Positions 21,240 through 40,525 of a stretch of DNA of 42,410 nucleotides are shown here, piece after piece. The translations under genes were made by a program, and so were the position numbers. The notes under the pieces are model-generated. The model was given only the letters and a program-made list of their open reading frames with translations. It was not told the origin of the DNA and did not search any database. Positions within the stretch are counted from its first letter, which is position 1, and every line of letters begins with the position of its first letter. The stretch comes from an uncultured Oscillospiraceae bacterium (GTDB taxonomy: Bacteria; Bacillota; Clostridia; Oscillospirales; Oscillospiraceae): assembly GCA_900752445.1 (NCBI GenBank), contig CAADVN010000050.1, positions 1 through 42,410 on the forward strand. Direction: 5' to 3'.

Positions 21240-21283
21240 CCGCTGCGAGCCGGGCGCGGACCAAGCAAAGGAGGAACACCCAA

Positions 21284-21814: not shown

Positions 21815-22088
21815 GACGCTCCCGACCATCATCGGTCCCGTCTCCGTGAAGATCTCCGACGTGCACACCGGCGCATGGCGCTACCGCCGCCCCGTCATCC
21901 GCAAGGACGACTGCATCCGCTGCGGCATCTGCGCCACCTACTGTCCCTGCGGCGCCATCGAAAAGGCCGACGAGGGCATGGTCATAGACTACACCTACTG
22001 CAAGGGCTGCGGCATCTGCACCGTGGAGTGCCCGAAAAAGGCCATAGACTTCATCGAGGAGTCCAACTTCAGAAAGGAGGGCGAGTGA
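21768..22088 (+). CDS. 2-oxoacid:ferredoxin oxidoreductase, delta subunit (2x[4Fe-4S] ferredoxin)
   Basis: Two cluster motifs, CIRCGICATYCP and CKGCGICTVECP. The start is ambiguous: GTG 21768, or ATG at 21777, 21801 or 21807. It overlaps the end of the gamma gene. Confidence 0.85.
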   Translation: MRKMQKLVQQRMKMLETLPTIIGPVSVKISDVHTGAWRYRRPVIRKDDCIRCGICATYCPCGAIEKADEGMVIDYTYCKGCGICTVECPKKAIDFIEESNFRKEGE

Positions 22089-22089
22089 T

Positions 22090-24151: not shown

Positions 24152-24161
24152 GAAAGACCAT

Positions 24162-24199
24162 GCGGGCCGTCGGTCACAGAGCCGGACGGCCCGCTTTTT
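24162..24199 (+). terminator. Intra-locus hairpin with T-run (terminator or attenuator) between the oxidoreductase genes and the CoA-transferase gene
   Basis: GCGGGCCGTCGG-loop-CCGGACGGCCCGC followed by TTTTTG. Only about 20 nt then remain before the RBS of the CoA-transferase gene. Confidence 0.6.
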
Positions 24200-24217
24200 G
24201 ATGAGGAGGAACACAAA

Positions 24218-25777
24218 ATGGCCAGGATAATTTCCGCCGCCGAGGCCGTGGAGCTCATGCACGACGGCATGACGCTCGGAGTGAGCGGCTTCGGCGCTTT
24301 CGCATCTCCGGACACCATACTCGACGCCATGGGCGAGAGCTTCCGTGCCAAGGGCACGCCCCGGGCGCTCACCATCGTCTCCGGCGTCGCGCCCGGCGAC
24401 TTCCGCGAGGACGGCTGCGGCCTGTCCAAGATAAAGGACGAGGGCATCATAGACACGCTCATCGCCTCGCACCTGCGCATGTCCCCGGCTATAGGCCGGG
24501 CCTGCAGCGAGAACAGGATAGCCGCCTACACCATGCCCCTCGGCCTCTACGGCCAGCTCATGGCGGCCATTGGCGGACACAGGCCGGGTATCATAACCCA
24601 CGTCGGCCTCGGCACCTATGCCGACCCCAGGCAGGAGGGCTGCCGCATCAACGACAGGGCCAAGGAGCAGGGCCGCGAGATCGTCAGGCTCATGCAGATA
24701 GACGGCAAGGACTACCTCTTCTACAAGGCCTTCAGGATAGACGCCTGCATCCTGCACGCAAGCTACGCCGATGAGGACGGCAACATCTCCGCGCAGAGCG
24801 AGCCCATACGCAGCGACCTGCTCGAGCTCGCCGCCGCCGTGCACAACAACGGCGGCACCGTCATCGTCGAGGTGAACGAAATCGTCAAGGCCGGCTCCCT
24901 CGACCCCAAGCAGGTGCTCATACACAAGTCCTACGTGGACTATATCGTCCGCGCGAAGAAGCAGGACAACATCGCGCTCGAGTATTCGCCCCAGCTCACC
25001 GGCGACATCCGCATGCCCGACGGCCAGGGCGTGGCCCCGCTGCCCATGGGCTTCAAGAAGGTCATAGCCCGCCGCGCAGCCATGGAGCTGCAGCCCGGCA
25101 TGCTGGTGAACCTCGGCATAGGCATCCCCGCCTCCGTTGCCAACGTGGCGAATGAGGAGGGCCTGAGCGGGAAGCTGACGCTCTCGCTCGAGACTGGCGT
25201 CTACGGCGGCGTGCCGCTCGACGGGCCGCTCTTCGGCGCGGCGGTGAACCCCGACTCCATCTCACGCTCCTCGGACATGTTCACGACCTACGACGGTGGC
25301 GGCCTCGACCTCACCGTGCTCGGCTGTGCGGAGATAGACCCCTGCGGCAGCGTGAACGTCTCCAAATTCAGCGGGCGCTGCGTCGGTCCCGGCGGCTTTG
25401 TGAACATCTCCCAGAACACACCCAGGGTGCGTTTCGCCTTCTCCTTCACCTCCGGCAAGGCCGACATCGCCGTGGAGGACGGCAGGCTCGTCATCCGCCG
25501 CGACGGCGACGGGATAAAGTTCAAAAAGGCCCTCGACCACATCACCTTCTCCGGGGAATACGCCGCGCAGACGGGCCAGGACGTCATGTTCATAACCGAG
25601 CGCGCCGTCTTCCGCGTCCTTGACGGGAAGCTGACCCTCACCGAGATCGCCCCGGGCGTGGACCTCGAGCGCGACGTGCTCGCCAAGATGGAGTTCCGCC
25701 CCGTCATCGCTGAGGACCTGCACGAGATGGACGCGCGGCTCTTCCAGCCCGGCAAAATGGGCCTCGGCGAGGGCTGA
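24218..25777 (+). CDS. Family I acyl-CoA:carboxylate CoA-transferase (propionate CoA-transferase / YdiF type)
   Basis: 519-aa single-chain enzyme. From memory it is colinear with Clostridium propionicum Pct / E. coli YdiF: DGMTLGVSGFG, YADEDGNIS, VKAGSLDP, LSLETGVYGG (catalytic Glu region), YDGGGLDL. Confidence 0.85.
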   Translation: MARIISAAEAVELMHDGMTLGVSGFGAFASPDTILDAMGESFRAKGTPRALTIVSGVAPGDFREDGCGLSKIKDEGIIDTLIASHLRMSPAIGRACSENRIAAYTMPLGLYGQLMAAIGGHRPGIITHVGLGTYADPRQEGCRINDRAKEQGREIVRLMQIDGKDYLFYKAFRIDACILHASYADEDGNISAQSEPIRSDLLELAAAVHNNGGTVIVEVNEIVKAGSLDPKQVLIHKSYVDYIVRAKKQDNIALEYSPQLTGDIRMPDGQGVAPLPMGFKKVIARRAAMELQPGMLVNLGIGIPASVANVANEEGLSGKLTLSLETGVYGGVPLDGPLFGAAVNPDSISRSSDMFTTYDGGGLDLTVLGCAEIDPCGSVNVSKFSGRCVGPGGFVNISQNTPRVRFAFSFTSGKADIAVEDGRLVIRRDGDGIKFKKALDHITFSGEYAAQTGQDVMFITERAVFRVLDGKLTLTEIAPGVDLERDVLAKMEFRPVIAEDLHEMDARLFQPGKMGLGEG

Positions 25778-25803
25778 AGGCCGTGAAGGGAGGCGCCGCG
25801 GGC

Positions 25804-26388
25804 ATGAGCGGCAAGAGGATAATAGTCGGCATAAGCGGTGCTGACGGCGTCTCGCTGGGCGTCCGGCTGCTCTCTATGCTGCGCGGCATGGAGGGCGTGG
25901 AAACGCTGCTTATAATGAGCCGCGCTGCCGAGCGGAACCTTGAGATAGAGTGCCGCACCGCTCCGGAGGAGATACGCGCGCTCGCAGACCGCTGGTACGA
26001 GCCTGAGGACATGGCCGCCGAGGTCTCCAGCGGCTCGTTCTGGACGGACGGCATGATAGTCGCCCCGTGCAGCATGAAGACGCTCGCTGCCATCGCCCAC
26101 GGCTATTCGGAAAACCTGCTGGTGCGTGCGGCTGACGTGTGCCTCAAGGAGGGCCGCAAGGTCGTGCTCATGCCGCGCGAGACGCCGCTGGGCATCATAC
26201 ACATCAAAAACATGCTCGCCGCAGCCGAGGCCGGCTGCGCCATCGTGCCGCCCATGCTGACGTATTATAACCGGCCAGAGAGCCTGGACGAGGTTGCCGA
26301 CCACGTGCTCGGCAAGGTGCTGATGCAGTTCGGGCTCATCCCGCCGGACTTTAGGCCCTGGGGCGGGACTGAAAGGAGAATGCCATGA
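25804..26388 (+). CDS. ubiX: UbiX-family flavin prenyltransferase
   Basis: RIIVGISGADG, VAPCSMKTLAAIAHGYSENLLVRAADVCLKEGRKVVLMPRETPL. GGGAGG lies 10 nt upstream of the ATG at 25804. The stop overlaps the ubiD start (ATGA). Confidence 0.9.
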   Translation: MSGKRIIVGISGADGVSLGVRLLSMLRGMEGVETLLIMSRAAERNLEIECRTAPEEIRALADRWYEPEDMAAEVSSGSFWTDGMIVAPCSMKTLAAIAHGYSENLLVRAADVCLKEGRKVVLMPRETPLGIIHIKNMLAAAEAGCAIVPPMLTYYNRPESLDEVADHVLGKVLMQFGLIPPDFRPWGGTERRMP

Positions 26389-27599
26389 AGGATATGAGAT
26401 ACTGCCTCGAAAAGATGGAGGCCGCCGGACGCCTCGCGCGTGTCAAAACGCGCGTGGACGCCGTGCACGAGCTCTCCGGCCTGAGCGCGAAGCTCGAGGG
26501 CGGCAGGGCGCTGCTCTTTGAAAAGGTGAAGGGCTACGACTATCCCCTGACCACCGGCTGGTGGTGGAACCGCGACAACGTTGCGGCGATATTTGACCGC
26601 CCCGCGGCGGACATACCCTGGCTGTTTGCGGACGCGGTGGACTCGCTGCGCTCCGCGCCCGTCGCGCCGATAGTGGTGGACGACGCGCCCTGCCGCGAGG
26701 TCTGTTTTCCCGAACCGGACCTCACGAGGATACCCGTGCCCACGCACGCGCTGCTCGACGGCGGGCCGTACTTTTCAAACTGCGTCATCATTGCAAAGGA
26801 CCCGGACACCGGTGTGCGCAACACCTCTGTGCACAGGCTCATGGTCACGGGGCGCGACAGGCTGGGCCTGCTCATGGACGCGGGCCGCCACCTGCGCGAC
26901 TACTACGAGCGCGCCGAGGCGCGCGGTGAGCCGCTGGAGATAACCATAAACAACGGCGTGCACCCGGCATATTTCGTCGCCGCGACGACGCCGAGCTCCG
27001 CCGCGCCCATAGACGTGGACGAGCTGGCCGTGGCCTCGTACCTGCTGGGCGAGCCCGCGCGGCTGTGCCCTGGCGTCACGGTGGGCGTCGAGGCCGTGGC
27101 GGACGCCGAGCTGGTGATGGAAGCGGAGATACTGCCCCGCGTGCGCGAGCCGGAAGGCCCCTTCGGAGAGGTCAGTGGCTACTATGCCACGCGCGCTGAC
27201 CGCTGGGTCGTGAGGATAAAGCACATGTCCATGCGCCGCGACCCCATCATAAGCACGCTGCATCCGGGCAAGGAGGTCTGGAACGGCCAGGGCCTGGGCA
27301 TAGAGGCGAACCTGTTCCGCACGATAAGCCGCCAGGTGAAGGGGCTTAAAAACGTCTACATGACGCACGGCGGCAGCCACTACCATGTGGTGCTGCAAAT
27401 GGACCCGCCCGCGAACGGCATGGCGAAGAACGCGATAATGGCGGCCTTCGCGGCCTTTTCGGACCTGCAGATGGTGACGGTGGTGAACAGCGACGTGAAC
27501 ATTTTCGACGCCGAGGACGTAGAGCGCGCCCTGTGCACGCGCTGCGACCCGGCAAAGGACATCGTCATCATCCCCGGCGCCTTTGCTGTTGTTAGATAA
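26385..27599 (+). pseudogene. ubiD: UbiD-family prFMN-dependent decarboxylase, 5' part (about 399 native codons), interrupted by a mobile element
   Basis: UbiD-like from the N-terminus through ...RCDPAKDIVIIPGAF. The frame then reads 4 element-derived codons (AVVR) and stops. The missing C-terminus is found at 37860-38003 in the same codon phase. Confidence 0.85.
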
Positions 27600-27671
27600 G
27601 GAAGCAATAGAAGTGTAAAAAATTTTGCCGTTCCCGTCCGGCGCTTGCGCACTGCGCCGGACAGGTCGGGC

Positions 27672-29285
27672 TTATTCGTCGGGCAAGTCCACCTTGCCGA
27701 CAAAGGAGTAGTAGATTTCAATTTCCTGCCTGCGGTGCTTGTTCTCGTCGTAACTGCACTCATGCACTACGATCTTCTCGATAAACTCCCGCAGCAGGGT
27801 AGGGGTCAGCTCCTCAAAGCTGATGTGCCTGCGGACGATGTTCATAAAACGCTCCGCATTGACCGACGCTTCCTGCGCCTTGGAAAGCTCCGCTTGCAGC
27901 TCGGCGGCGTGTGCCCTGACCTGCCGCTGCTCGGCTTCATAGTCTGCGGAAAGTTCCGCAAAGCGTTCATCAGAAATACGCCCGGTCACACTGTCCTCAT
28001 AAAGCCGCTTGAAGATAGCGGACAGCTCCGCAATCCGCTTTTCGGCTGCGTCCAGTTCCTTTCGCTTGGCAGCGTTGCGGCGTTTGCCGCCGTCCTCGTT
28101 CTGCTCGATCAACAGCTTCATAAAATGCTTTTCGTGCTTGGCGGCGTAGGCGGTGATCTTCCTGAGATTCGCCGTCACGCCCGCTGTCAGAAGGTCAGTG
28201 CGGATAAAGTGCGCCGTGCAGCTCTTGACACGCCGTTTGTAGTTGCCGCAGATGTAGCAGTCCTGCTTGCGGGTCTTGTTCTCATACCGCTGCTGGTAAA
28301 GGACGCTGCCGCAGTCGGCGCAGAACAATATGCCGGAGAACAGACCGACTTCATCATAGCGGTTTGGACGCTTGCGCTGCTTGCGTAATTCCTGCACACG
28401 CTCCCATGTGGCAAGGTCAATGATTGGCTCATGGGTATTCTCGAAAATGACCTGTTTTTCTTCGGGATTTTCCACGCTTGATTTGACCTTGTAGGACACT
28501 TTCTCGGTCTTGAAGTTTACCGTATGCCCCAGATATTCCTTGCGTTCAAGGATATGGACAATCGTGTTGGTCGCCCACTTGTAGGGATAATCGGGGTAGT
28601 AACGGCGTGTGCTGCCTGTCCTGCGGTATTCCAATGTACCCGGTGTTGGGATTTGCTGCTCGGTCAATATACGGGCGATTTTGGTCGGACCGTTCCCGGC
28701 AAGGCACAAGCTGAAAATCTGCTTGACGACCGGGGCAGCTTCTTCGTCCACGATAAAGCGTCCGTCCTCGCCTTTGAGATAGCCATAGACCGGCTGACTT
28801 GTGATAGGCTTGCCACTCATGCCTTTGCTGCGGAAAACTGCCTTGATTTTCTTGCTCGTATCTCTCACCATCCATTCGTTGAAGATATTACGCAGAGGGG
28901 CAAAATCATTGTCGCCCTGTGCGCTGTCCACTCCATCGTTGATAGCGATAAAGCGAACGCCCCTTTGTGGGAAAATCATGTCCGTATACATTCCCACTTG
29001 GAGATAGTTTCGCCCTAATCTCGACATATCCTTGACAATGACCGTTCCGACTTTCCCGGCTTCAATATCCGCAAGCATGGCCTGAAAACCGGGTCTTTGG
29101 AAGTTCGCACCGGAGTACCCATCGTCCGTGTACCATTGGAGATTGGTAAAGCCGTTCTGCTTTGCATAGCTTTCCAAAATACGCTTCTGGTTGGAGATGG
29201 AATTACTCTCGCCCTGCAATTCATCTTCATGGGATAATCTCGGATAAAGGGCAGTAATGAGGTTTTGGGTTGTCTGTCTAATCAT
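27672..29285 (-). CDS. Large serine recombinase (TnpX/TndX-like)
   Basis: N-terminal resolvase domain YPRLSHEDELQGESNSISNQ...DDGYSG...VKDMSRLGRN, a recombinase domain, a zinc ribbon (CADCGSVLY...CYICGNY) and a C-terminal coiled coil. GGAGG lies 5 nt before the ATG at 29285; the track start is 29297. Confidence 0.92.
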   Translation of the reverse strand: MIRQTTQNLITALYPRLSHEDELQGESNSISNQKRILESYAKQNGFTNLQWYTDDGYSGANFQRPGFQAMLADIEAGKVGTVIVKDMSRLGRNYLQVGMYTDMIFPQRGVRFIAINDGVDSAQGDNDFAPLRNIFNEWMVRDTSKKIKAVFRSKGMSGKPITSQPVYGYLKGEDGRFIVDEEAAPVVKQIFSLCLAGNGPTKIARILTEQQIPTPGTLEYRRTGSTRRYYPDYPYKWATNTIVHILERKEYLGHTVNFKTEKVSYKVKSSVENPEEKQVIFENTHEPIIDLATWERVQELRKQRKRPNRYDEVGLFSGILFCADCGSVLYQQRYENKTRKQDCYICGNYKRRVKSCTAHFIRTDLLTAGVTANLRKITAYAAKHEKHFMKLLIEQNEDGGKRRNAAKRKELDAAEKRIAELSAIFKRLYEDSVTGRISDERFAELSADYEAEQRQVRAHAAELQAELSKAQEASVNAERFMNIVRRHISFEELTPTLLREFIEKIVVHECSYDENKHRRQEIEIYYSFVGKVDLPDE

Positions 29286-29426
29286 GGTTTCCTCCATTTC
29301 CGACAGCCAGCCCCGCTATTCCGTAAGGAAATTATATCACACGGGGCGGCTGTCTGTATAGCTGGTAAATGTGAATTTTGCTTCTTTATCGCCCGTCATT
29401 ATGACGATTTTTTGGAATTAGGCTTG

Positions 29427-29630
29427 TCATGCAGTATAACTTGGCTTGTGTGTAGCTGCGGTTTCCGCTTCAAGCACTTTCATCATCTTGTCGGCTGCGG
29501 TGGCTGTGGTATCTTTCTTGAAAAAGCCGGACACAACAAGCACGGTGTTACCCATGCGGATCTCCGTCACGCAGTCCGGGCGGCGGTCGGTGCGGTCATT
29601 GTTATTCTGTTTGTTTTCTGTCATAGGCAA
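29427..29630 (-). CDS. Small protein, possibly TnpW-like (transposon-encoded)
   Basis: 67-aa ORF between the recombinase and DnaC-like genes. From recall only, ...MGNTVLVVSGFFKKDTTATAADKMMKVL resembles the small TnpW proteins of Tn4451-type elements. Confidence 0.45.
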   Translation of the reverse strand: MPMTENKQNNNDRTDRRPDCVTEIRMGNTVLVVSGFFKKDTTATAADKMMKVLEAETAATHKPSYTA

Positions 29631-29636
29631 CTCCTT

Positions 29637-30476
29637 TCACTTCAACAGTTCTTTTAGTCCATTGAGCTTGGCTTGTGCCGTTTCCTTTCGGAAGTTCTCG
29701 CCTGTAAAGAGGATAGGCAGACACATTTCAAGCACTCGGTCATAGATACGGGCGTGGGCGGTGTCCTGTGGATTTTGCAGTTCCGTAAGGCTTAGATTGG
29801 TGGTGACAATCAGCGGCTTTCGGCTGCGGTATCGGCTGTCAATTACATTGTAGACCTGTTCCAAACCGTACTCTGTGCCACGCTCCATACCAAAATCATC
29901 AAGTATCAGCAGAGGGAAACGGCAAAGACGCTCGATATATTCGTTTCGCCCCTCAAAGCTGGCAGTTAAATCATTCAGTATCGCAGAAAAGTTTGTCATG
30001 CGGACGGAGATTTCCTGTTCCATAAGGGCATTGGCAATGCACCCGGCAAAATAGCTTTTTCCTGTGCCTACCTTGCCCCACAAGAGCAGACCATAGTTGT
30101 TTTCTCTCATCTGCTCCCAATGCTCCACATATAAATGTGCCTTGCTCATCTGCGGGCATTTGCCGTTGTCATGTGCAAAAGTCCATTCCTGCATGGTGAG
30201 GTCGGTAAAGCCCCGGCGTTTCAGTTCCATAACGGTGTCAAGGTGTCGTCTGCGTTCCTCGGCGGATTCACATTCCAAACGCTTCTCCCGTTGGCAGTCA
30301 CATTCTGTCGGGTGCTTGTCATGCCCCAACCATGCGGCGGTTTCTTTGGGAAAGTAGGCTTCTTTCGCCGTGCGGCACTTGCCGCAGTAAAGCAGACCGT
30401 CCTCGCCCGTGTAGTCCTCCGGCTCTGCGGTAGTAGTCATCATATTCAAAACGGTATCGGTAAAAAGTTCAGTCAT
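29637..30476 (-). CDS. DnaC/IstB-like AAA+ ATPase (replication helper)
   Basis: Walker A LLLWGKVGTGKS and Walker B LLILDDFGMER, with a Cys-rich N-terminal region. Its start overlaps the end of the replisome-organizer gene. Confidence 0.85.
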   Translation of the reverse strand: MTELFTDTVLNMMTTTAEPEDYTGEDGLLYCGKCRTAKEAYFPKETAAWLGHDKHPTECDCQREKRLECESAEERRRHLDTVMELKRRGFTDLTMQEWTFAHDNGKCPQMSKAHLYVEHWEQMRENNYGLLLWGKVGTGKSYFAGCIANALMEQEISVRMTNFSAILNDLTASFEGRNEYIERLCRFPLLILDDFGMERGTEYGLEQVYNVIDSRYRSRKPLIVTTNLSLTELQNPQDTAHARIYDRVLEMCLPILFTGENFRKETAQAKLNGLKELLK

Positions 30477-31216
30477 AAACTCTCGCCCTCCTTAAAGGTG
30501 TAATCGGGTATGCCTTTTTTCGGCGGTTTCTTGGCTTCGTCCTCCTGCGCCCACTTGTATATCGTGGCTGCATGGCTACGGTATTTCGTTCCTTTGGACG
30601 CTATATGAGTAGATAAGCGGTCAATATAATACTCCCATTTGTCGGGCAGTTCCGCTTTCAGCTCGTCCAGTTCCGTATCGGAAAGAAAAACATTGTTGTA
30701 TCTGCCATAGCTGCGGGCGGGGGCTTGTCCCGTTTCTAACTCTCTCTCTTTTTCTATCTCTATATCTATCTCTTTCTTTATCTCTATCTCTGGTGGACGA
30801 ATGTCGGACAAATGTCCGCCGTTTGTCCGGGGTGGTGGCAAAGCCTTGTTTGCAAGCCTTGCTGCCCGTTTTCGTTCCGCTTCGGTAGAGGATTGCCCTA
30901 TCATCAGTTCAATATCGGTCATGTAGAGCAAGCCGCCGTGTAGCTGCTCCACAAGCCCCAACTGCTGAAAAATCCCTAACGCCCGTTCCACCGTGCCTAC
31001 CTGCTGACGGGTAAGAGTGGCGATCATCTGTGCTGTGTAAGGGATATTCTCGTCAAGCTGCAACTTGCCGCCGTTTTTCAGCGATTTTAAGTACAGCTTC
31101 AAGAGAATGTTGGAATAGAGAATACCGTCCGGCATACTCTCCAACAGCACGATAGCGTCATCATCAAAATAGCTTTCTTTCAGTTTGAGGTAGTAATATT
31201 TGCGGTTATCTGCCAT
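30473..31216 (-). CDS. Phage-type replisome organizer / DnaD-like protein
   Basis: The N-terminus MADNRKYYYLKLKESYFDDDAIVLLESMPDGILYSNILLKLYL matches the phage replisome organizer N-terminal domain pattern. Confidence 0.8.
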   Translation of the reverse strand: MADNRKYYYLKLKESYFDDDAIVLLESMPDGILYSNILLKLYLKSLKNGGKLQLDENIPYTAQMIATLTRQQVGTVERALGIFQQLGLVEQLHGGLLYMTDIELMIGQSSTEAERKRAARLANKALPPPRTNGGHLSDIRPPEIEIKKEIDIEIEKERELETGQAPARSYGRYNNVFLSDTELDELKAELPDKWEYYIDRLSTHIASKGTKYRSHAATIYKWAQEDEAKKPPKKGIPDYTFKEGESL

Positions 31217-31400
31217 AGGCGGTGTCCTCCTTTGGTTTCCAACGCTTGGAGTAATACCGGTGGCAGAGGATAATCACGGTTCGGAAACTCTGCTTGCAAT
31301 CGTGGGTGCAGCCCCGGCAAAGGTCGTTATAGGTAATTCGGTTTCGGTGGTTGAGGAAAAAGCTCCATTCAAGCCGCCGTTTGTTGCTCATGCGTGGCAT
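31206..31400 (-). CDS. Small Cys-rich hypothetical protein
   Basis: MPRMSNKRRLEWSFFLNHRNRITYNDLCRGCTHDCKQSF...LCHRYY. AAAGGAG lies 7 nt upstream of the ATG at 31400, and the gene overlaps the next start. Function unknown. Confidence 0.5.
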   Translation of the reverse strand: MPRMSNKRRLEWSFFLNHRNRITYNDLCRGCTHDCKQSFRTVIILCHRYYSKRWKPKEDTAYGR

Positions 31401-31585
31401 TGGTACGCTCCTTTCTGCCGTTTCCGTGGGTATCACGGATAGGGCGGGAAAACTGTATCTTCTCGGTATCATTTTCGGGGATTTTTTGCCCTGTACGCCC
31501 TGTTTTGAGGTCGGGGAGTATTGCGGATAGGGGTAAGGGCATATCCCTGTTTTTGTTTGGTTTCGGTATCATTTCGGGGCGGTTT

Positions 31586-33211
31586 TTAACGCTCCTGTTC
31601 ATGCTTTTTCTGTCGGCTCGGCTCGCCGTGGTGCATTTGGGAAAGATTGCTTTTCATGGTCTGCAACTCCCGGACACGCTCTTTATTTGCCCGGTACTCG
31701 TTGTAAAGGGCGTTCTTCTCGGCGGTAAGCTGCTCGATTTCAGCCTGCAACGATTTATAGGTGGGCAGCTTGGTAATGCCTTTTTGCCGAAAATATCTTA
31801 CGGCTGCGTCTGCTATGATAAAGTCGCTTTCATGCTTTTCCCGGTAGGCTTTGCGTGCCTTATCGGTTTTCTGCTTTTTCAATCCGTCACGCACATCTCT
31901 TGTCTTGGCATAGGCAAGCACCTGTTTCTGCAAGTCCTTTTTCTCACGGATAGCCGTTTCAATGGGCTTCAGCTTGGCGGTGCTGCTGTGTAAATCCGCA
32001 TTGGCAGACACAAGGGCTGCGTCCAGTTCATCCGGGGTAAAGCCGTATTGCTCCATAGCGGCAACGGTAGCCGCCATCTGTTTGAGATTGTGGACAGCCG
32101 CCCAACGGTCATAGCCGATACCTTTTCCCTCGGCTCGCTTCGCCGCACGGTCAACCATTCTCTGAATGTTGCCTGTCGGGGCGATTTTCTGCGTTTTTCC
32201 TCGCTCTGTGCGGTTTGTTTCAGCGGTATGGTATTCGGGTATGGGTACGGTCTTTTCGGCGGCTCTGTGGGCGTTCTGCTCCAAAAGAGTAAGAACAGCA
32301 GCACGGTCAAAATCATCTCCCAGTTTTCGGGCGGTAATGGGTTTCGTTCTGTCCGGGGTAAGGTAGGACAATCGCCCTCGGCTCTCTTTGACGGTCACGC
32401 CCTGTTGCAGAAGTAAAGCGGAAAACTCGTCAAAGGTGGTCGCTTCGCTCATGGCATTCCGTATGGTCTGCCGCAACTTCGCCTTGTCGGTTTCAAACTT
32501 GGTCTGCTTTACAGGCTTCCCCTCGGCTGCAAGGGCGGCATTTTCCTTGTCAAGTTTGGCTTGTCCTTTTTTATGCGCCCAATACTCACGCTCGGTAATG
32601 CGGTTTTTGCTGCCATGCAATAGGTCAATCTGATAGAGATTTTCCCGGTGGCACATCTCCATGACCTCGGCTTTGAAGTATTCCATAGCAGCGTCCGTAC
32701 AGCGGTGCTTGCACCCGGCACGGGTATCTGCCGGTCTGTCCATGTAGGGCAGTAAGGGTACTTCCTCGATACGCAGAGAATTGATAACAATGTGAACATG
32801 GATATTGCCGCTGTGGTTGTGTCCGTCCGGGTGGGTACAGACAATGGCTTGGTGTCCTGGGAAATGCTCGGCACAAAATTCCTCGCCCAATGCTTGCGCC
32901 CGGTCTACGGTCAAGCCGTTGTCCGCTGCGTCCCGTGGGTCAAAGGAAATGATATAGTGGTGGCTTTTCACATCTTCCCGTTTTTGGTTCTTGCCGTATC
33001 GGAGATTTGCCCGCATACAGGCAACGGCAAAATCTTCCTCGCCGCAGTTCAGCGTGGCTATTCGGTAATCCTCCCGGAGTATGAGCCGCCCGGCTTCGTC
33101 AAGGGTGGGCTTCATGGTAAACTCGTCATGCTCAAAGGTTAGATACTGCTCGGCTGCACCGTAGTCCGCATTTTTAGAGCTGATATGCTTGAATGTTGCC
33201 AACAGCGTCAC
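31586..33211 (-). CDS. Relaxase/mobilization nuclease (MobA/VirD2 family)
   Basis: N-terminal Tyr region (SKNADYGAAEQYL), the histidine triad HPDGHNHSGNIHVHIVINS, and a long coiled-coil C-terminus. The start is GTG at 33211 or TTG at 33202. Confidence 0.9.
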   Translation of the reverse strand: MTLLATFKHISSKNADYGAAEQYLTFEHDEFTMKPTLDEAGRLILREDYRIATLNCGEEDFAVACMRANLRYGKNQKREDVKSHHYIISFDPRDAADNGLTVDRAQALGEEFCAEHFPGHQAIVCTHPDGHNHSGNIHVHIVINSLRIEEVPLLPYMDRPADTRAGCKHRCTDAAMEYFKAEVMEMCHRENLYQIDLLHGSKNRITEREYWAHKKGQAKLDKENAALAAEGKPVKQTKFETDKAKLRQTIRNAMSEATTFDEFSALLLQQGVTVKESRGRLSYLTPDRTKPITARKLGDDFDRAAVLTLLEQNAHRAAEKTVPIPEYHTAETNRTERGKTQKIAPTGNIQRMVDRAAKRAEGKGIGYDRWAAVHNLKQMAATVAAMEQYGFTPDELDAALVSANADLHSSTAKLKPIETAIREKKDLQKQVLAYAKTRDVRDGLKKQKTDKARKAYREKHESDFIIADAAVRYFRQKGITKLPTYKSLQAEIEQLTAEKNALYNEYRANKERVRELQTMKSNLSQMHHGEPSRQKKHEQER

Positions 33212-33581
33212 CTACCTTTCGCAAGACTTCAAACTTCAAGGCGGCAAGGTCGGAAATGGCGGCTCGCACTTCAACGGACAGCGTATTGTAGGGCGTTCCG
33301 TATTCGTTGAGGGCACGGGCGATCTGATTAAGGTTGCCGCCGATTTTTCCGTATTCGGCTATCAACTTTCCAACAGCGGACAGCAGTTCATCATTGACCG
33401 GGGAAACGGTAACAATGGGGCGAATGGTCGCCCTTGTAATGGCTTGTCGGATAAACTCGGCTTGGCTCATGTCATAATTCTTTAGCCGTTCCGTGAAGTC
33501 GGCATATTCTTCTTCGGTCATGCGTGTCTTGACTACATGGCTTCGGTGGGGCGTATTGTATCGCTTTCCTATGGGTATCAA
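33174..33581 (-). CDS. mobC: MobC-type relaxosome accessory protein
   Basis: RMTEEEYADFTERL...SQAEFIRQAI and GKIGGNLNQIARALN match the MobC family. The start codon is uncertain because the TTG at 33581 abuts the RBS. Confidence 0.85.
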   Translation of the reverse strand: MIPIGKRYNTPHRSHVVKTRMTEEEYADFTERLKNYDMSQAEFIRQAITRATIRPIVTVSPVNDELLSAVGKLIAEYGKIGGNLNQIARALNEYGTPYNTLSVEVRAAISDLAALKFEVLRKVGDAVGNIQAYQL

Positions 33582-33867
33582 CTCCTTTCACTTACCGCCG
33601 TTTTGTGGGCGATTTTTTAAGTATTTTTTGGTGGGATTTTCAAGCGGCACAAGCCGCATAGCAGGGTTTGGGGAAGGCACTCCCCAACAAGATTCCGATG
33701 GGGCAGAATGAGCGAACGGCGAATTATGGCACCTCGGTAGAATCTTGCTCTGACAACTCACGCTCTGCTCCTGCCGTAAAACTGCGTATTTCTCCCTCTG
33801 CTGCCTACAACGACAGGAAAGGCATTTTGCCAAAGAATGTGGATAATTTTTTTGAAAAAATGGGCGT

Positions 33868-33894
33868 GAAAAAACGGCTTGCCATGCAAACCGT
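33868..33894 (-). terminator. Minus-strand hairpin with T-run in the non-coding stretch upstream of mobC
   Basis: The minus strand reads ACGGTTTGC-ATG-GCAAGCCGT followed by TTTTTTCAC. Confidence 0.4.
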
Positions 33895-33981
33895 TCAAAA
33901 AACATATACTTGATTTATGAGAAATCAACCTGAGATCAGGGAGGGCAGGCACAGCTTGTGCTTGCCCTCCTTGTCTGCCGA

Positions 33982-34061
33982 AAAGCGAAACAAGCTGCGG
34001 CTGTCAATGGCGCGTAAGCGTTTATCTCGACCATTGACGGGTGCAGCCTGTTTTGCTATCT
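33982..34061 (+). repeat. Direct repeat copy A (left of the cargo block)
   Basis: It aligns without gaps to 37700-37779. By my manual count, 57 of 80 positions are identical. Perfect blocks are CTGTCAATGGCG (34001-34012) and GCCTGTTTTGCTATCT (34046-34061). It contains the stem GTCAATGG / CCATTGAC. Confidence 0.7.
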
Positions 34062-34340
34062 TTCGTGATGAATTTATAGAAGACGATGCCCTCATTTTTC
34101 TCTGCGGCACAATATCGGTAGCCGCCACCAATATTGTCTAAAGACAGGAGCAAGGAGTTTTCATATGGGCAATTCGCACCGTTCCCCTTTACCATTTTCA
34201 AAGTGCCTCTCACAGCTGCCCGTTCATAGAAAATTCACAAACAGATTACTGCCGCCATATTGAAAAAGATGGTCATTATATGGTAGACTTATTATGCGGA
34301 TAGAATACCTATCTGACAAACTATGATTGGAGGTAACGCC

Positions 34341-34445
34341 ATGTATCGTCCCAATGATGCCCGGTTCGGTTTTGCGTGTTGGTGGTATTGGTGCGGCTCC
34401 CGATTATGGAGAGGTCGTATCAAAATCGTTTCTGTTGGCGCATAG
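34341..34445 (+). CDS. Candidate 34-aa Trp/Cys-rich small ORF
   Basis: GGAGG lies 7 nt upstream of the ATG. The translation is MYRPNDARFGFACWWYWCGSRLWRGRIKIVSVGA*. The stop is embedded in a hairpin with a T-run. There is no homology evidence. Confidence 0.3.
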   Translation: MYRPNDARFGFACWWYWCGSRLWRGRIKIVSVGA

Positions 34446-34483
34446 GCCGGACTGGTGATTAGTCGGCTTGTGCGCCTTTTTCT
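34437..34483 (+). terminator. Compound hairpin with T-run (terminator, or alternatively an oriT-like site)
   Basis: Outer stem GGCGCA / TGCGCC and inner stem GCCGGACT / AGTCGGC, followed by TTTTT (34477-34481). Confidence 0.5.
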
Positions 34484-34831
34484 TGCACAATAGGATGGTT
34501 GTTGTTTATCCTTAAAAGAATTGTAGAATTTCTACGACCCACAACGAAGTATTCGTACTTATTAACTGAAAGAGACTGCACCGGGTTATACATCTCTGCC
34601 GGAAGTGGTACAGGAAATTCATCATACCGATACCGAAGGTGGAATGAGCATAATTGTGTTCAATACTCGGTATGGGTTTATGCGCTGGGCTGCTTATTTC
34701 GCCCTCTGCTTTTGGAGGTTAAGATTGAAATTCAACAGGTATGTTGCATAGTACTTATCGTTTACAATATGATTTAAGACTATGCGCAGTTGTTAGATGC
34801 TACGAATATCTATTGCAAAGGAGTGATTATT

Positions 34832-35434
34832 TTGAAACCGAAAAGACTGTTGGCTGTATTGCTAACACTAATTTTAACCTGTTCATTTGTAACTTCTGCA
34901 TCAGCAGCTTCTTGTGGTGAATATGTTGATTGGACATGGAAAAATGGCACCTCATCGTTATCTGTGCAGATGTTCCCGTCTGCATACGATTTTTATGATA
35001 ATATTTATGCCGTTTACCAGTCTTGGAATGACATATCCTCAGCGGTTTCCATTGATGGATTTACATACTACGCAGATGGAACTAACCAAAATAAGGATAT
35101 TCAAATTGTTGGTGCTGCACTTACGGGAACAACTTTAGCGAACACAAGTATATATAGCAAAAACATTCTAGGTGTTTATACCCAGCAAGGTTTTTGGTCT
35201 TATACAGGAAAAGTTAGTAAAGCTGTTATCACCATTGACACATCAGGTAGATTTGGTGGACAGACAGACACATGGGAAAGAAAAACAATAATCCATGAAT
35301 TGGGACACGCACTGGCGTTAGATCATCCGTCCTGTACTAACCGAGCTATTATGCACCAAACCAGTTCTTCTTATGTTTCAAGTTCAATGCAATCACACGA
35401 TAGAGATTGTCTGATTGAGAAATGGGGTGAATAA
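34832..35434 (+). CDS. Secreted metzincin-like zinc metalloprotease (matrixin/M10-like)
   Basis: AGGAG precedes the TTG start at 34832. Signal peptide KPKRLLAVLLTLILTCSFVTSASA. Zinc motif HELGHALALDH (HExxHxxGxxH with G replaced by A) and a Met-turn candidate AIMH. Confidence 0.8.
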   Translation: MKPKRLLAVLLTLILTCSFVTSASAASCGEYVDWTWKNGTSSLSVQMFPSAYDFYDNIYAVYQSWNDISSAVSIDGFTYYADGTNQNKDIQIVGAALTGTTLANTSIYSKNILGVYTQQGFWSYTGKVSKAVITIDTSGRFGGQTDTWERKTIIHELGHALALDHPSCTNRAIMHQTSSSYVSSSMQSHDRDCLIEKWGE

Positions 35435-35436
35435 GT

Positions 35437-36057
35437 ATGACTAAAAGAACAAAAAGCATTCCGGTTTTGCTTGGTACTCTATTCCTGTTGATTCTTGTTG
35501 TTGCTGCTTCTTTAACTTCATTTTTGGGAAGCAAGACGCATTACAATATTCTTGCAACCGACAGATTGCAATTAGCACCTACTTATGCTGACTTGCAAAA
35601 TGTAAGTGATATTGTTGTTAAAGCGACAGTTATTCCCGGAAAAGAAAACAAGTTAATTACAGCAGACGATGGCACAGTTGTCTTTGGCTATACCATTACG
35701 CAGCTTAATGTCACAGAAGTATTCAAAGGAAATATCAATGAGGACTATCCCATTAACATTACCGAAGAATACTACACTCTTTCAGGAAATGGGAATGAGG
35801 TTTACACCCAAGGAAATTATATGCCCGCACAAGAAAGTGGCGAATATATTTTCTTCTTAAAAGCATACGACAGCACCAGCCCCTATGCCGGAATGTATTT
35901 TCCTGTTGATTTGGAGTATGGTAAGTATTCTGTTGATCTGGCTGAAACCTTTACTACACCAGCAAATGCTTCAGCAGCAGAATATGAGGTCATTGCCCTT
36001 GATGAAAAATATGTTGAGTTTGCCACAAGAGTAATTGAAGATTATTTACAAAACTAA
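35437..36057 (+). CDS. Hypothetical membrane-anchored extracytoplasmic protein
   Basis: 206 aa, starting 3 nt after the protease stop. N-terminal TM segment IPVLLGTLFLLILVVAASLTSFL. No family recognised. Confidence 0.65.
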   Translation: MTKRTKSIPVLLGTLFLLILVVAASLTSFLGSKTHYNILATDRLQLAPTYADLQNVSDIVVKATVIPGKENKLITADDGTVVFGYTITQLNVTEVFKGNINEDYPINITEEYYTLSGNGNEVYTQGNYMPAQESGEYIFFLKAYDSTSPYAGMYFPVDLEYGKYSVDLAETFTTPANASAAEYEVIALDEKYVEFATRVIEDYLQN

Positions 36058-36072
36058 GAAAGGAAATTCAAA

Positions 36073-36540
36073 ATGAAAAAGAGAATTTTTGCATTAGCAG
36101 TAGCAGTCATGATGTTGGCTTCTTTTGCTACAACCGCTTCTGCTGCCGAAACGCAGAATCCATACGAACTGCCCTATGATGTAGATAGCGGAGAAATGTT
36201 TGAATGTAGCGAATCCCTTGCCGTGGGAGATATACGAACCAGAGCTATTTTAGGAACAGGCACCCTTTACCATTCCGACCCTCTCATCGGTTATCCAAAA
36301 GCATACGCCTATACAGAGGCCTACGACACTTCATATAAAGTTCGTGCAAAATGCGATGTCAACAGTAACGGTGAGGGTGTCGATACAACAGGTTGGAAAG
36401 AGCTTAAAAACACCAAAGCGTGTAACTCCGGCACAATTCAAGCAACCACGGCTCGTTGTATTTTCGATGGCTTCCACGAAATTCAGACAACTTCCACTTC
36501 CAGCATGGGATCTGCTCAAACTACGGCATCCTATAATTGA
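36073..36540 (+). CDS. Hypothetical small secreted protein with 4 Cys
   Basis: 155 aa with AAGGAAA upstream. Signal peptide MKKRIFALAVAVMMLASFATTASA. No family recognised. Confidence 0.65.
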   Translation: MKKRIFALAVAVMMLASFATTASAAETQNPYELPYDVDSGEMFECSESLAVGDIRTRAILGTGTLYHSDPLIGYPKAYAYTEAYDTSYKVRAKCDVNSNGEGVDTTGWKELKNTKACNSGTIQATTARCIFDGFHEIQTTSTSSMGSAQTTASYN

Positions 36541-36549
36541 TTAAACCAC

Positions 36550-36600
36550 GGGGCATAACAATAATCTGCAAATGTGTGGGGAATTGTTATGCCCCACTTT
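36550..36600 (+). terminator. Hairpin after the three-gene cargo operon
   Basis: Perfect 13-bp stem GGGGCATAACAAT / ATTGTTATGCCCC (36550-36562 and 36583-36595) followed by ACTTTAT. The loop is long (20 nt) and the T-run is weak. Confidence 0.55.
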
Positions 36601-36620
36601 ATAGGGAGAGGTATATGTAA

Positions 36621-37565
36621 GTGAAACTAAAAAGATTCTTTTGCGCTTTGCTGATTATGACAATATGCGTATTATTTGCTTCTTGTGATTATTCCGACAA
36701 TGATAAACACTTGGATTTCGCAGATGAATATAGAGAATATGGAAATATGCTTGTTTTAGGCGTTGTCAACGATACAGATTTGACCGAGGACGGAGTTGTA
36801 TATCTTGATTCCATTACAGATAACTTAAACATACAATTTGCAAACTTGACCGAATACGATTCGGAGTACATATTAAAACTGTTTTTGGATTACGAAGAAA
36901 TTGAGTATTTTATTGATGATGAAATCAAAAACGGATATGTTTTTCAAGCAAAATCCGATGAATCGTTGATTATTCCTGTGAAGCTCAATTCATCAATAGA
37001 CTTCAATAATTCTCATATACTCACTGTCGCGGTCTTGACCGCACCAAACAAACACGCAAAAAAAAGTGATTTAATGAGTAATTCCTATGGAATGGTTCTT
37101 AGCTACGAACTTGCTCCGCGTGATGGCACGCGAAGTATCTCAACAAATAAAATATGTAGTGATCCTACAAAATATTTGGAACTAAACTATCAAGGGTTGA
37201 TGTTAAATCTTGATTTTGATGCTGCAAACAATGCTACAACACAATTTCCACCACAGAATATATTTGCAAAGGCTGGGGAAACTATAACATTGGCATACCG
37301 TGCTGGAAACTATGAAAATGCAAGTGAGCTGATGGTCATTGTCCTTATAGATTGGAAACAAAGCCAAATAAATGATGTTAATTCTCTCTATATTAGGAAT
37401 AAGCCCGGATACATAGGTTATGGTGAATTGAACATTACCACTCCACTTCAAGCTGGTGAATACGAAGTGACGGCCTTTGTAGTAGACTCTCCGTTTAGTT
37501 TAAGAGATTTCAATACTTTCCATACTCATGATACAGCATATCGCTTTACTTTAACAGTGCAATAA
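36621..37565 (+). CDS. Hypothetical lipoprotein
   Basis: GTG start after GGGAGAGG. Lipobox VLFASCDYS. 314 aa, Asn/Asp/Ile-rich, no family recognised. Confidence 0.65.
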   Translation: MKLKRFFCALLIMTICVLFASCDYSDNDKHLDFADEYREYGNMLVLGVVNDTDLTEDGVVYLDSITDNLNIQFANLTEYDSEYILKLFLDYEEIEYFIDDEIKNGYVFQAKSDESLIIPVKLNSSIDFNNSHILTVAVLTAPNKHAKKSDLMSNSYGMVLSYELAPRDGTRSISTNKICSDPTKYLELNYQGLMLNLDFDAANNATTQFPPQNIFAKAGETITLAYRAGNYENASELMVIVLIDWKQSQINDVNSLYIRNKPGYIGYGELNITTPLQAGEYEVTAFVVDSPFSLRDFNTFHTHDTAYRFTLTVQ

Positions 37566-37699
37566 AATATCTATAATGAACTACCCGTACCGTTGGCAAC
37601 GGCATAACCGCTAACTTAATACATCAATTATCGTAAATTCAGATAAACAAATGATACTGGGCGGTTAAGCACTCTTGGGCTTGTTCGCCTTGTTGTCAT

Positions 37700-37779
37700 A
37701 AAGCAAAATGGGCGGCAACTGTCAATGGCGGGCGTAGCCCGTTCATGACCGTTGACTGCTACTGCCTGTTTTGCTATCT
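37700..37779 (+). repeat. Direct repeat copy B (right of the cargo block, about 80 nt from the element end)
   Basis: Aligns to 33982-34061. It has the same outer stem (GTCAATGG / CCGTTGAC, one pair becoming G-U) and a different but still self-complementary inner loop (CGGGC-GTA-GCCCG). Confidence 0.7.
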
Positions 37780-37859
37780 CCCCTTTGGCTGTTCGGAATA
37801 GCGGCGGGGCTGCTGTCCTCGTCTGTGTTTGTGGTCTGCTTCTTTATTGCCCTTGCGCG

Positions 37860-38003
37860 TTCGGCCACGAGCTGAACCCCGTCGTGCGCGGCAACGTTGC
37901 GGCAAAGATGGGCTTCGACTGCACATACCCGGTGCCCAAACCGCCCGAGTACACGCGCGTGAGCTTTATGGACGTAGACCCCGGCAAATACGATATACGC
38001 TGA
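37860..38003 (+). pseudogene. ubiD: UbiD-family decarboxylase, 3' remnant (47 codons)
   Basis: FGHELNPVVRGNVAAKMGFDCTYPVPKPPEYTRVSFMDVDPGKYDIR*. The G..L.P....KMG.D.T pattern is the UbiD C-terminal region. It is in phase with the break at 27582. Confidence 0.8.
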
Positions 38004-38953: not shown

Positions 38954-39036
38954 CCGTGACAGCCGTGACGACCGTGACGATGTTTTTAAAACAGCGCCGC
39001 TCTTTTCTTAGCCGTCACAGCCGTCGCGGTCGTCAC
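38954..39036. repeat. Iteron array: 3 direct plus 3 inverted nonamers around an AT-rich spacer (candidate replication origin)
   Basis: CCGTGAC occurs at 38954, 38963 and 38972 (9-nt period). The spacer is GATGTTTTTAAAACAGCGCCGCTCTTTTCTTAG. CCGTCAC, CCGTCGC and TCGTCAC follow at 39012, 39021 and 39030 (9-nt period, inverted sense). The last unit overlaps the rep stop codon. Confidence 0.6.
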
Positions 39037-40193
39037 GCCTTTGGGTCAGATTTCGTCAGCGTGATCGTTCTTCCTGAGTGTGTGCGGGTGTTTTCGTAGC
39101 GCACTTTGAAGTCGCTCAGCAGCTTCCCGGCGCGGACATTGAGCCGCATCGCCAGGGCGTTCGGTTTCATGTCAATGCCCAGTTCATCTCGCAGCTCCGT
39201 CGCGCTGCCTTCCCATGTCGGGCTCTCCTCCGTCACGAGCGCCGCCACCTTCTCGAGCATCGGGTCTGGCGGCTCGCGGTACGGCTCCTTGTCCGCGTGG
39301 TCAAAGCACCAAAGCAGCCGCTCCTCGTCGCGCACAAGGTGGATGCGCTGGTCGGGTTGGTCGCGGCCGGAGACGCTGAGCGTGGCCGCGTTATCCGTGC
39401 GGTTCTCCTTGCTGAGCACGAACGCGCCGTCGGCACAGCCGTAGATGCCCGTTGTGCCGGAGATTCTGTCAAACTCGTCGTTCGCCGCAGACTTTCGCGT
39501 GTGGTGAACGATGAGCATGCACAGCCCGAACTTGTCCGCGAGCTGCTTGAGCTGGCCGATGATCTGGTAGTCGTCCCGGTAGCTGTACGCCTCGCCGCTC
39601 AGCTCGCGCACCTTTTGCAGCGTGTCGATGATGATAAGACGTGTGTCCGGGTGCTCGCGCACGAACTTCTCAAGCTGCGCGTCGAGGCCGTTTCCGAGCT
39701 GCTTCGCGCTTATGGCGAAGTGTAATTTATCTGCGCCCTCCACGCCAAACATACGGTACATTCGCCTTTGCAGCCTCTCGTAGCCGTCCTCAAGCGCGAG
39801 GTAGAGCACTGTGCCCTGGTGGACTTCGCAGTCCCAGAGCTTTTGTCCGGTGGCGACGTGGTAGGCGAGCTGCGCCATGAGGAAGGACTTTCCCACCTTC
39901 GGCGCACCTGCGAATATGTAAGTTCCGTTTTGGAGTAATCCTTCGATGACTGGCGGTTTGCTCTCGTAGACTGTGTCGTACAACTCGGCCATCGTCACCG
40001 TCGGCAGGAACGCCGGGTCGTTCATACGGCGCAATTTTCTGTACAATTCCTGCAGATTTTCGTTGCTTTCGGCACCGGGATTTGATATATTGTTGTTGCA
40101 AACATTTGAAAGCGGCTGTCCCGCATCTGCGCCAACAGATGACAAAGGGGCAGCGTTTTCTTTTATCACCTGCTCAGCAAGCAAAGGCATCAC
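39033..40193 (-). CDS. AAA_25/RepA-like RecA-fold ATPase (element replication initiator/helicase candidate)
   Basis: Walker A FAGAPKVGKS, VLYLALED, Walker B RLIIIDTL and MLIVHHTRK, with a C-terminal extension. Confidence 0.85.
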   Translation of the reverse strand: MMPLLAEQVIKENAAPLSSVGADAGQPLSNVCNNNISNPGAESNENLQELYRKLRRMNDPAFLPTVTMAELYDTVYESKPPVIEGLLQNGTYIFAGAPKVGKSFLMAQLAYHVATGQKLWDCEVHQGTVLYLALEDGYERLQRRMYRMFGVEGADKLHFAISAKQLGNGLDAQLEKFVREHPDTRLIIIDTLQKVRELSGEAYSYRDDYQIIGQLKQLADKFGLCMLIVHHTRKSAANDEFDRISGTTGIYGCADGAFVLSKENRTDNAATLSVSGRDQPDQRIHLVRDEERLLWCFDHADKEPYREPPDPMLEKVAALVTEESPTWEGSATELRDELGIDMKPNALAMRLNVRAGKLLSDFKVRYENTRTHSGRTITLTKSDPKA

Positions 40194-40383
40194 CTCCCGT
40201 GTGCCTGTCTATCCAGGCTATCAGCTTGTCCTTCGGCACCAGCTTCCGCTTCCCGATCTGCAGCGTAGGGAAATCCGCGGAATTCAGCAGCTGATACGCC
40301 CCGGCTCTGGATATTCCCAGCGCTTCAGCCAGCATCCCGGCGTTCAGGATATCGGGCAGACTCTCATAGGCTTCTCTTCTCAT
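40174..40383 (-). CDS. Small excisionase/MerR-type HTH (HTH_17) protein
   Basis: LPDILNAGMLAEALGISRAGAYQLLNSADFPTLQIGKRKLVPKDKLIAWI. The best RBS spacing is for the ATG at 40383; the track start is 40413. Confidence 0.75.
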   Translation of the reverse strand: MRREAYESLPDILNAGMLAEALGISRAGAYQLLNSADFPTLQIGKRKLVPKDKLIAWIDRHTGGDAFAC

Positions 40384-40424
40384 TGACATTTCCCCTTTAA
40401 AAAATATTGCCAAGATACATTTTT

Positions 40425-40467: not shown

Positions 40468-40525
40468 AATAACCGTTCGACATTTGATATAATTCATTAT
40501 TTCATACCAGATTGGAGGTATGCCG

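Follow-up and report, generated by a model that had tools for sequence, protein, structure and literature searches.

An integrative mobilizable element of a multi-targeting serine-recombinase family splits ubiD in an uncultured Oscillospiraceae bacterium

Serine-recombinase elements that split a gene and whose precise excision rebuilds it are known from the skin element in sigK, the cyanobacterial fdxN (XisF) and nifD elements and the comK prophages; these occupy one dedicated site per lineage, are often degenerate and excise in a manner tied to development. Tn4451 and Tn4453 of Clostridium are integrative mobilizable elements (IMEs) with a low-specificity large serine recombinase (TnpX) that crosses over at 2 bp, the core of Tn4451 being GA. 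Durrant et al. (2022; PMC10083194) described a multi-targeting clade of such recombinases, 63% of which carry DUF4368 and which includes a TndX-like transposase subfamily; one of their multi-targeting examples has a TT core, and a multi-targeting DUF4368 recombinase was unidirectional in human cells. Serine-recombinase IMEs that also encode a replisome organiser and DnaC have been reported in the maff2 gene of Tn5252-type elements (PMC5704250, Table 1), and the same article, citing Lyras et al. (2004), describes efficient integration and excision by the Tn4451 recombinase without a directionality factor. For IME_Rho_tet, a 10.7-kb IME of gut bacteria, PMC12904643 places its boundary 81-90 bp past the recombinase stop and 45% of its copies in MAFF2 genes, with the remainder interrupting other genes. 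Here, we describe a related arrangement in a contig of an uncultured Oscillospiraceae bacterium (CAADVN010000050.1, assembly GCA_900752445.1), which was analysed as one whole stretch of 42,410 bp, hereafter called the window. In this window, a low-GC IME of 10,278 bp (27584-37861) splits ubiD, the last gene of a metabolic operon. We conclude with considerable confidence that an IME of an abundant gut-Firmicutes family has inserted into a sequence within chromosomal ubiD that resembles its preferred target by chance. The insertion is ordinary, probably recent, and not a dedicated genetic switch.

The 5' part of ubiD (26385-27583, plus strand) comprises codons 1-399 and the TT of codon 400, a Phe codon. 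Translation of the open reading frame (ORF) at 26385-27599 gives a 404-aa product that runs to ...DIVIIPGAF and then, from the stretch 27584-27599, which holds the last base of the Phe codon, reads the four foreign residues AVVR and a stop, just as a sequence-only reading of this DNA had described. The 3' part (37862-38003, plus strand) begins with the final base of codon 400 and continues through codons 401-446 to the stop. It corresponds to the 47 final codons, FGHELNPVVRGNVAAKMGFDCTYP...KYDIR, of the ORF 37752-38003, and the proposal that these are the missing C-terminus is borne out by a gapless alignment to 16 diverse family members, which includes the conserved GHELNP and GFDCTYP segments. 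When 27583 is joined to 37862 in silico, i.e. when the 10,278 bp of 27584-37861 are removed, a colinear ORF of 1341 nt is obtained; it encodes 446 aa, where about 445 had been announced. The rebuilt protein matches the Pfam families UbiD_N (1.2e-11), UbiD (2.1e-54) and UbiD_C (8.9e-27), each above cutoff. The alignment to UbiD_C covers positions 5-127 of the 127 in the profile and residues 303-420, and passes uninterrupted through the junction residue 400. With these three domains and its full-length colinearity, the protein belongs to the UbiD family of decarboxylases that depend on prenylated flavin mononucleotide. A homology search with it returned two 446-aa proteins, P0001 and P0002, with 99% and 98% aa identity over the full length, along with hundreds of further relatives of 445-449 aa.

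The two junctions fall on the same dinucleotide of this one codon, TT at 27582-27583 on the left (attL) and TT at 37860-37861 on the right (attR). The left junction reads CCCCGGCGCC-TT-TGCTGTTGTTAG, with the left flank ending in ...GGCGCC before TT, the right junction reads CCCTTGCGCG-TT-CGGCCACGAG, and the undisturbed site (attB) is ATCCCCGGCGCC-TT-CGGCCACGAG. The break points on a single Phe codon with a shared TT, claimed from the letters of the window alone, are thus upheld by the comparison of the three sites. The predicted empty site, CCCGGCGCCTTCGGCCACGAG (...ATCCCCGGCGCCTTCGGCCACGAG...), is found verbatim in the metagenome contig L001, which encodes the intact P0001 and is 98.4% identical to the window in nucleotides, and in a diverged form in L002 (94% identical in nucleotides); the TT is common to attL, attR and both empty sites. 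The contigs that encode P0001 and P0002 are colinear with the window through 27583 and pick up again at 37855/37856, and the GC content drops from ~0.65 in the flanks to 0.38-0.53 within the insert. Compared with its counterpart in L001, rebuilt ubiD has 17 synonymous and 4 non-synonymous codon differences and neither a frameshift nor a stop, as would be expected if a gene subject to purifying selection had been interrupted recently. Overall, the observed split and its junctions are far beyond chance.

The inserted DNA was delimited by its absence from L001 and L002, by the contrast in GC content and by a backbone shared with related elements. The gene nearest the left junction encodes a large serine recombinase of 541 aa (27672-29297, minus strand) with Resolvase (1.4e-22), Recombinase (3.2e-24), Zn_ribbon_recom (4.5e-12) and DUF4368 (PF14287, 1e-22, residues 470-537) domains in Pfam and the catalytic-serine motif YPRLS at residues 19-23. 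The catalytic serine domain, the zinc ribbon and the non-palindromic 2-bp core shared by attL, attR and attB are those of a large serine recombinase. Identity as an XisF-type excisase was rejected, as the match to that NCBIfam model reached 93.6 bits against a cutoff of 375. The recombinase stop (last base 27672) sits 87-88 nt inside the left junction; the gene had been correctly placed beside this junction, at a distance of 90 bp that is slightly too large. Just upstream of the recombinase gene, there as in all relatives, lies a gene for a TnpW-like protein of 67 aa (29427-29630, minus strand; Pfam TnpW, PF14202, 1.8e-9, 37.6 bits against a cutoff of 25), and a 65-aa ORF occupies the equivalent position in L003-L016. 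Membership of the Tn4451 family, considered on account of TnpW, was rejected because the relaxase type and other genes differ.

The same strand continues with a DnaC/IstB-like helicase loader (29637-30476; Pfam IstB_IS21 1.4e-15; PHROG 50, DnaC-like loader, 2.6e-56), a DnaD-like replisome organiser (30473-31216; Pfam Phage_rep_org_N 4.6e-30; PHROG 5968, 9.8e-48), a MobA/VirD2-type relaxase (31586-33211; Pfam Relaxase 7.9e-14) and a NikA/MobC-like relaxosome accessory protein (33174-33581; Pfam NikA-like 1.4e-13, MobC_2 1.1e-7). Searches of 27584-37861 with Pfam, NCBIfam and PHROG returned no VirB4, VirD4 or TrbL-type gene, i.e. no gene for the mating pore of a type IV secretion system (T4SS). 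We therefore classify the element as an IME, since it has its own integration module, a relaxase and NikA/MobC without T4SS genes. Five ORFs of 92, 214, 206, 155 and 314 aa on the plus strand (34499-37565) form a variable cargo, a region not common to related elements; they gave sub-threshold Pfam and NCBIfam matches only, and no significant match in Pfam, NCBIfam, PADLOC (defence) or PHROG. The 214-aa cargo protein contains a weak zinc-metalloprotease-like motif. Neither backbone nor cargo has a megablast match among PLSDB plasmids.

Both ends of the element carry recognizable attP arms. The left, recombinase-proximal arm (27584-27620) consists of 11 variable nt, TGCTGTTGTTA, followed by the conserved GATAAGGAAGCAATAGAAGTGTAAAA, which is kept in 119 of 119 junctions of the family. 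The right, distal arm (37824-37859; ...GCTTCTTTATT + GCCCTTGCGCG) shares ~82% similarity over 72 bp with the corresponding end of the elements in L003 and L012. The two arms form an imperfect inverted repeat, ATAA-GAAGCA (recognized partly by eye), which begins 11 nt from the TT core. From these ends, the junction of the circular form is predicted to read ...CCCTTGCGCGTTTGCTGTTGTTAG..., and attP and attB have GCGC-N-TT in common.

The element fits a known kind of IME, and its cargo and its secondary site are new. It resembles the DUF4368 clade of large serine recombinases in the combination of Resolvase, Recombinase, zinc-ribbon and DUF4368 domains, in its many unrelated targets and in a TT core with a degenerate flank motif; unlike the AT-rich published example, however, the target motif of the family seen here is GC-rich (CC-N-K-G). 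With the maff2 serine-recombinase IMEs (IME_ScoC232_maff2_site1 and IMESp2907, compared by description), it shares a single large serine recombinase, a replisome organiser, DnaC, its own relaxase and the lack of a T4SS; siblings with 97-98% identical recombinases, as well as the element end of locus L096, lie in maff2 of Tn5252-type elements, and one family member (L107) lies in maff2 of Streptococcus mitis, whereas the window copy sits in a chromosomal metabolic gene and carries different cargo. IME_Rho_tet, likewise compared by description, is similar in size (~10.3-10.7 kb), gut origin, relaxase, MobC, a serine recombinase at one end, terminal inverted repeats and the boundary after the recombinase stop (81-90 bp, 87-88 in the window), and the maintenance genes of the window element (Phage_rep_org_N, IstB/DnaC-like) are likewise those of serine-recombinase IMEs. 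In contrast to IME_Rho_tet, the window element has neither tet(W)/tet(32), a ribosomal-protection tetracycline resistance cargo (its cargo ORFs have no significant family match), nor a methyltransferase gene, and its cargo is on the opposite strand, whereas all ORFs of IME_Rho_tet have one orientation. Tn4451/Tn4453 (TnpX) are IMEs that likewise combine a low-specificity recombinase and a 2-bp crossover with a TnpW-like gene, but the window relaxase is of the MobA/VirD2 type and not MobV (TnpZ), and the core is TT; TnpW-like was the only Tn4451-type gene found in the window element, with no catP/cat, tnpV or tnpY.

The family to which the element belongs is abundant. More than 8000 close homologues of the recombinase were found in gut metagenomes, and in 16 of the 17 metagenome loci fetched, the 6.2 kb of backbone that extend from NikA to the recombinase show 96-99% identity; the figure for L007 is 87%, and the cargo differs. 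One recombinase that is 97% identical to the window copy, P0128, occurs as an identical protein at no fewer than three unrelated sites: beside a histidine-kinase (HisKA)/pilus locus, in a T4SS-DNA_transf (coupling-protein-like) gene, and in several maff2 variants, the last repeatedly between the Maff2 and TrbL/VirB6 genes of conjugative elements. The closest recombinase, P0121 (98% identical, with the same 3' flank), is located in a maff2 site. With ubiD, this makes at least four target classes, so that a cluster of at least 90% identity is found in more than three unrelated genes, as expected of a multi-targeting recombinase. Since the same or a near-identical recombinase (97-98% in aa) is present at many unrelated sites, it is not dedicated to ubiD; and since the full mobilization and replication backbone is near-identical to that of other copies, the element is not a degenerate domesticated remnant.

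Family junctions were gathered with the conserved end GATAARGAAGCAATAGAAGTGTAAAA, which yielded 8 loci in a viral collection and 95 loci in species-representative genomes. In all, 119 junctions with 110 distinct flanks were obtained, ~31 of them in maff2 (...CATGCCCTGGCT-TT) and ~79 elsewhere, among which a few diverged maff2 genes are probably included. At a distance of 11 nt from GATAA, 117 of the 119 junctions have TT. This fixed spacing, together with the conserved 3' flank, ties the recombinase to the junctions and agrees with the 2-bp crossover of a large serine recombinase, both of which had been suggested from the window alone. The carriers of the conserved end include Lachnospiraceae, Oscillospiraceae, Phascolarctobacterium, Dialister, Collinsella, Actinomyces, Streptococcus mitis and Treponema porcinum. 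The non-maff2 flanks share a loose motif, with T at -15, A at -14/-12, CC at -9/-8, G/T at -6 and G at -5. In a matrix built from the non-maff2 sites, which models one target half-site, the ubiD half-site GTCATCATCCCCGGCGCC-TT scores 5.2 bits and ranks 21st among the 2470 TT sites that the reconstituted host contig holds on its two strands; this score falls inside the interquartile range of real sites, which makes it a good match and not a unique one. The element end at L096 is identical to that of the window copy (TGCTGTTGTTAGATAAGGA) and is nevertheless located in maff2, as are the siblings, whereas the window copy is inserted in chromosomal ubiD.

Several further observations were made on the family. 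In L101 and L117 the core is AT or TA instead of TT, which could reflect mismatch-tolerant recombination, mutation after insertion or sequencing error. In L005 (6262-8652), a family member lies within a T4SS-DNA_transf gene and adjoins a second DUF4368 recombinase (626 aa) with TnpV; a conjugative element here contains serine-recombinase elements in a nested or tandem arrangement. Five near-identical recombinase homologues (P0176, P0190, P0191, P0194 and P0213) have a replaced or extended C-terminus, such as forms of 644 aa and 623 aa with PF10035/PF02588 and one of 850 aa with an EAL domain, in which DUF4368 is missing or a host domain is fused; they could represent junction read-through, truncating insertions or assembly chimeras. 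The conserved end was also seen in contigs labelled Bacteroidaceae (L070), Alistipes (L079), Treponema porcinum (L106), Actinomyces/Pauljensenia (L076/L062) and Collinsella (L085), and these labels point either to a host range well beyond Firmicutes or to contaminated bins of metagenome-assembled genomes (MAGs).

The disrupted allele is a minority one. In the protein collection the 404-aa truncated UbiD is found on few contigs only (3 were read), while in the corresponding 90%-identity cluster of 91 members, the other members among the 15 listed are all 446 aa, each on up to 30 contigs, and intact ubiD loci come from many samples. One further contig, L028 (ERZ28598304), carries the same disrupted allele, 100% identical over 11.2 kb, and ends 36 bp into the element. 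A metagenome scan for the Pro-Gly-Ala-Phe codons joined to the element gave 4 matches, all with non-ubiD flanks, and there was no second ubiD insertion in the ~120 family junctions.

From these results, the following course of events may be proposed. The IME would leave a previous site as a circle with the attP ...GCTTCTTTATTGCCCTTGCGCG-TT-TGCTGTTGTTAGATAAGGAAGC..., and its own relaxase would mobilize this circle by way of the mating pore that a helper conjugative element provides. In the new host, the DUF4368-type recombinase would pair attP with a TT-core target of loose consensus, about T-W-N-A...CC-N-K-G-N4-TT, make 2-bp staggered cuts at TT, rotate the half-sites and religate them. The preferred target of the family is maff2 of Tn5252-type conjugative elements; the one used in the window is ATCATCCCCGGCGCC-TT-CGGCCACGAG, which codes for I-I-P-G-A-F-G-H-E of UbiD. 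As serine recombination is conservative, excision would restore ubiD exactly, which is a side effect of the reaction chemistry and not a switch shaped by evolution. The recombinase is presumably active in its host and may be competent for excision. Four points weigh against this account. The circle junction pattern GCTTCTTTATT-N11-TT-N11-GATAARGAAGC had no match in the viral contigs or in any of the fetched loci, which were the sequences scanned. The consensus alone cannot explain the choice of ubiD, because the 32 kb of host sequence contain ~20 further TT sites with equal or higher scores. The contigs with the disrupted allele may not come from independent samples, as L028 and the window show 100% identity across 11.2 kb. 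Finally, the loss of UbiD activity is read from the protein sequence.

The exactness with which excision restores ubiD, in silico and in the empty sites, is the part of the sequence-only reading's excision logic that stands, and it is what one would expect if the element were a regulatory or developmental switch maintained in ubiD, the excision of which, under a particular condition, reactivates the operon, as with skin/sigK, fdxN/nifD in heterocysts or phi10403S in comK. The intact recombinase gene with its catalytic motif, the rebuilt ubiD without decay, and XisF as the best NCBIfam match of the recombinase (well under cutoff, as given above) would all be compatible with such a role. But the lack of decay is equally expected after a recent insertion, the recombinase is multi-targeting and favours maff2, the backbone is complete, mobile and near-identical to others instead of a domesticated remnant, intact alleles dominate the same 90%-identity cluster among the members listed, and the metagenome junction scan turned up no second insertion in ubiD. 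Unlike the sigK, fdxN/nifD and comK elements, then, the window element is a fully mobile, promiscuous IME that forms a minority allele; it is not fixed at one dedicated site and its recombinase is not dedicated to one. We thus consider a switch of the sigK/skin or active-lysogeny type, the other part of that logic, highly improbable. It is about as improbable that the IME leaves and re-enters ubiD with appreciable frequency and so creates a population with and without a working UbiX/UbiD pathway; if true, this would be a phase variation of a metabolic operon driven by a mobile element and exploited by selection, although the element did not evolve for it.

A genuine secondary attB, in which the 11 core-adjacent nt of one element sub-lineage (TGCTGTTGTTA / CGCGCAAGGGC) had co-evolved with ubiD as a target and insertions recur, would account for the GCGC-N-TT common to attP and attB. 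These 11 nt do vary between sub-lineages, and published work on IME_Rho_tet (PMC12904643) suggests co-evolution of the recombinase and its inverted repeat; yet L096, with an identical proximal end, is in maff2, and neither the family junctions nor the targeted scan contain another ubiD junction, so we hold this to be very unlikely, if a shade less so than a switch. Least probable of all, and by our estimate hardly credible, is an assembly artefact in which a repeated element was misthreaded through ubiD. The element is indeed a high-copy repeat in gut metagenomes, and L028, the other assembly of the allele, stops 36 bp into it. However, both junctions lie on the TT of one codon and are spaced from the conserved arm as in the rest of the family, joining the flanks regains the reading frame exactly to the base, and an assembler chimera would not yield recombinase-type junctions at both ends; the attL junction is also present in L028, which may not be independent of the reads of the window. 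The insertion of a promiscuous IME into a look-alike target thus remains our preferred explanation.

Although the literature already covers elements of this type, their promiscuity and their disruption of genes, and the locus opens no new biological question, this insertion offers a clean worked example of a multi-targeting serine-recombinase IME that, away from its usual maff2 site, knocks out a chromosomal metabolic gene. It also illustrates a risk for annotation, as a 404-aa "UbiD" would otherwise be called and the broken operon of the strain overlooked. The ~110 different flanks surveyed, which combine a TT core with CC-N-K-G 5-9 nt away, form a usable target-site data set for an abundant recombinase family and could interest those who mine recombinases for genome engineering.

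The interrupted gene closes a conserved operon (19299-27583 and 37862-38003 in the window; also L124-L127) on a high-GC chromosome (~64%). Its order is a DASS (Na_sulph_symp/CitMHS) transporter, an AsnC regulator, a four-subunit 2-oxoacid:ferredoxin oxidoreductase, a fused CoA-transferase, UbiX and UbiD. The CoA-transferase, of family I with fused A and B parts and FadX-like, is encoded at 24218-25777 (plus strand; Pfam CoA_trans 2.9e-35; NCBIfam FadX 1.4e-102, under the curated cutoff), upstream of ubiX and ubiD, and the ubiX-like flavin prenyltransferase at 25783-26388 (plus strand; Pfam Flavoprotein 5.9e-42). This layout suggests a route from an oxo-acid through acyl-CoA and the acid to decarboxylation. 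In L125, KdgT and an Ldh-type dehydrogenase take the place of the transporter.

The truncation costs UbiD its 46 C-terminal residues, GHELNP and GFDCTYP among them, in exchange for AVVR. Rebuilt UbiD aligns over residues 2-445 to the closest solved structure, PDB 7p9q (AnInD). Because the lost segment holds GHELNP/GFDCTYP and belongs to the region aligned with 7p9q, the truncated protein is probably non-functional, and loss of function of this last operon gene is the most likely outcome. The closest solved homologues are the indole-3-carboxylate decarboxylase AnInD and the entries 6h6v/6h6x, and the named UbiD homologues nearest to the rebuilt protein come from Oscillospiraceae MAGs. The host may be able to sporulate, to judge from a SpoIVB-like gene that lies downstream of ubiD in the ~84-86%-identical relatives L124-L127 and was not seen in the window.

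A second element, separate from the IME, is inserted ~850 bp downstream of ubiD and runs from 38859 to the contig end at 42410, homology to L002 stopping at ~38858. At its junction, ...CCGGGTAGCA|AGCAATGTCC..., the ~136 N-terminal codons are missing from a minus-strand gene whose intact counterpart in L002 encodes 398 aa. Family searches assigned three genes to this second element: on the minus strand, one for an AAA_25 primase/helicase-like protein (39033-40193) and one that is Xis/AlpA-like with an HTH_17 domain (40174-40413), and on the plus strand a repressor-like HTH_3 gene (40520-41326). The contig ends before the integrase and the far end of this element.

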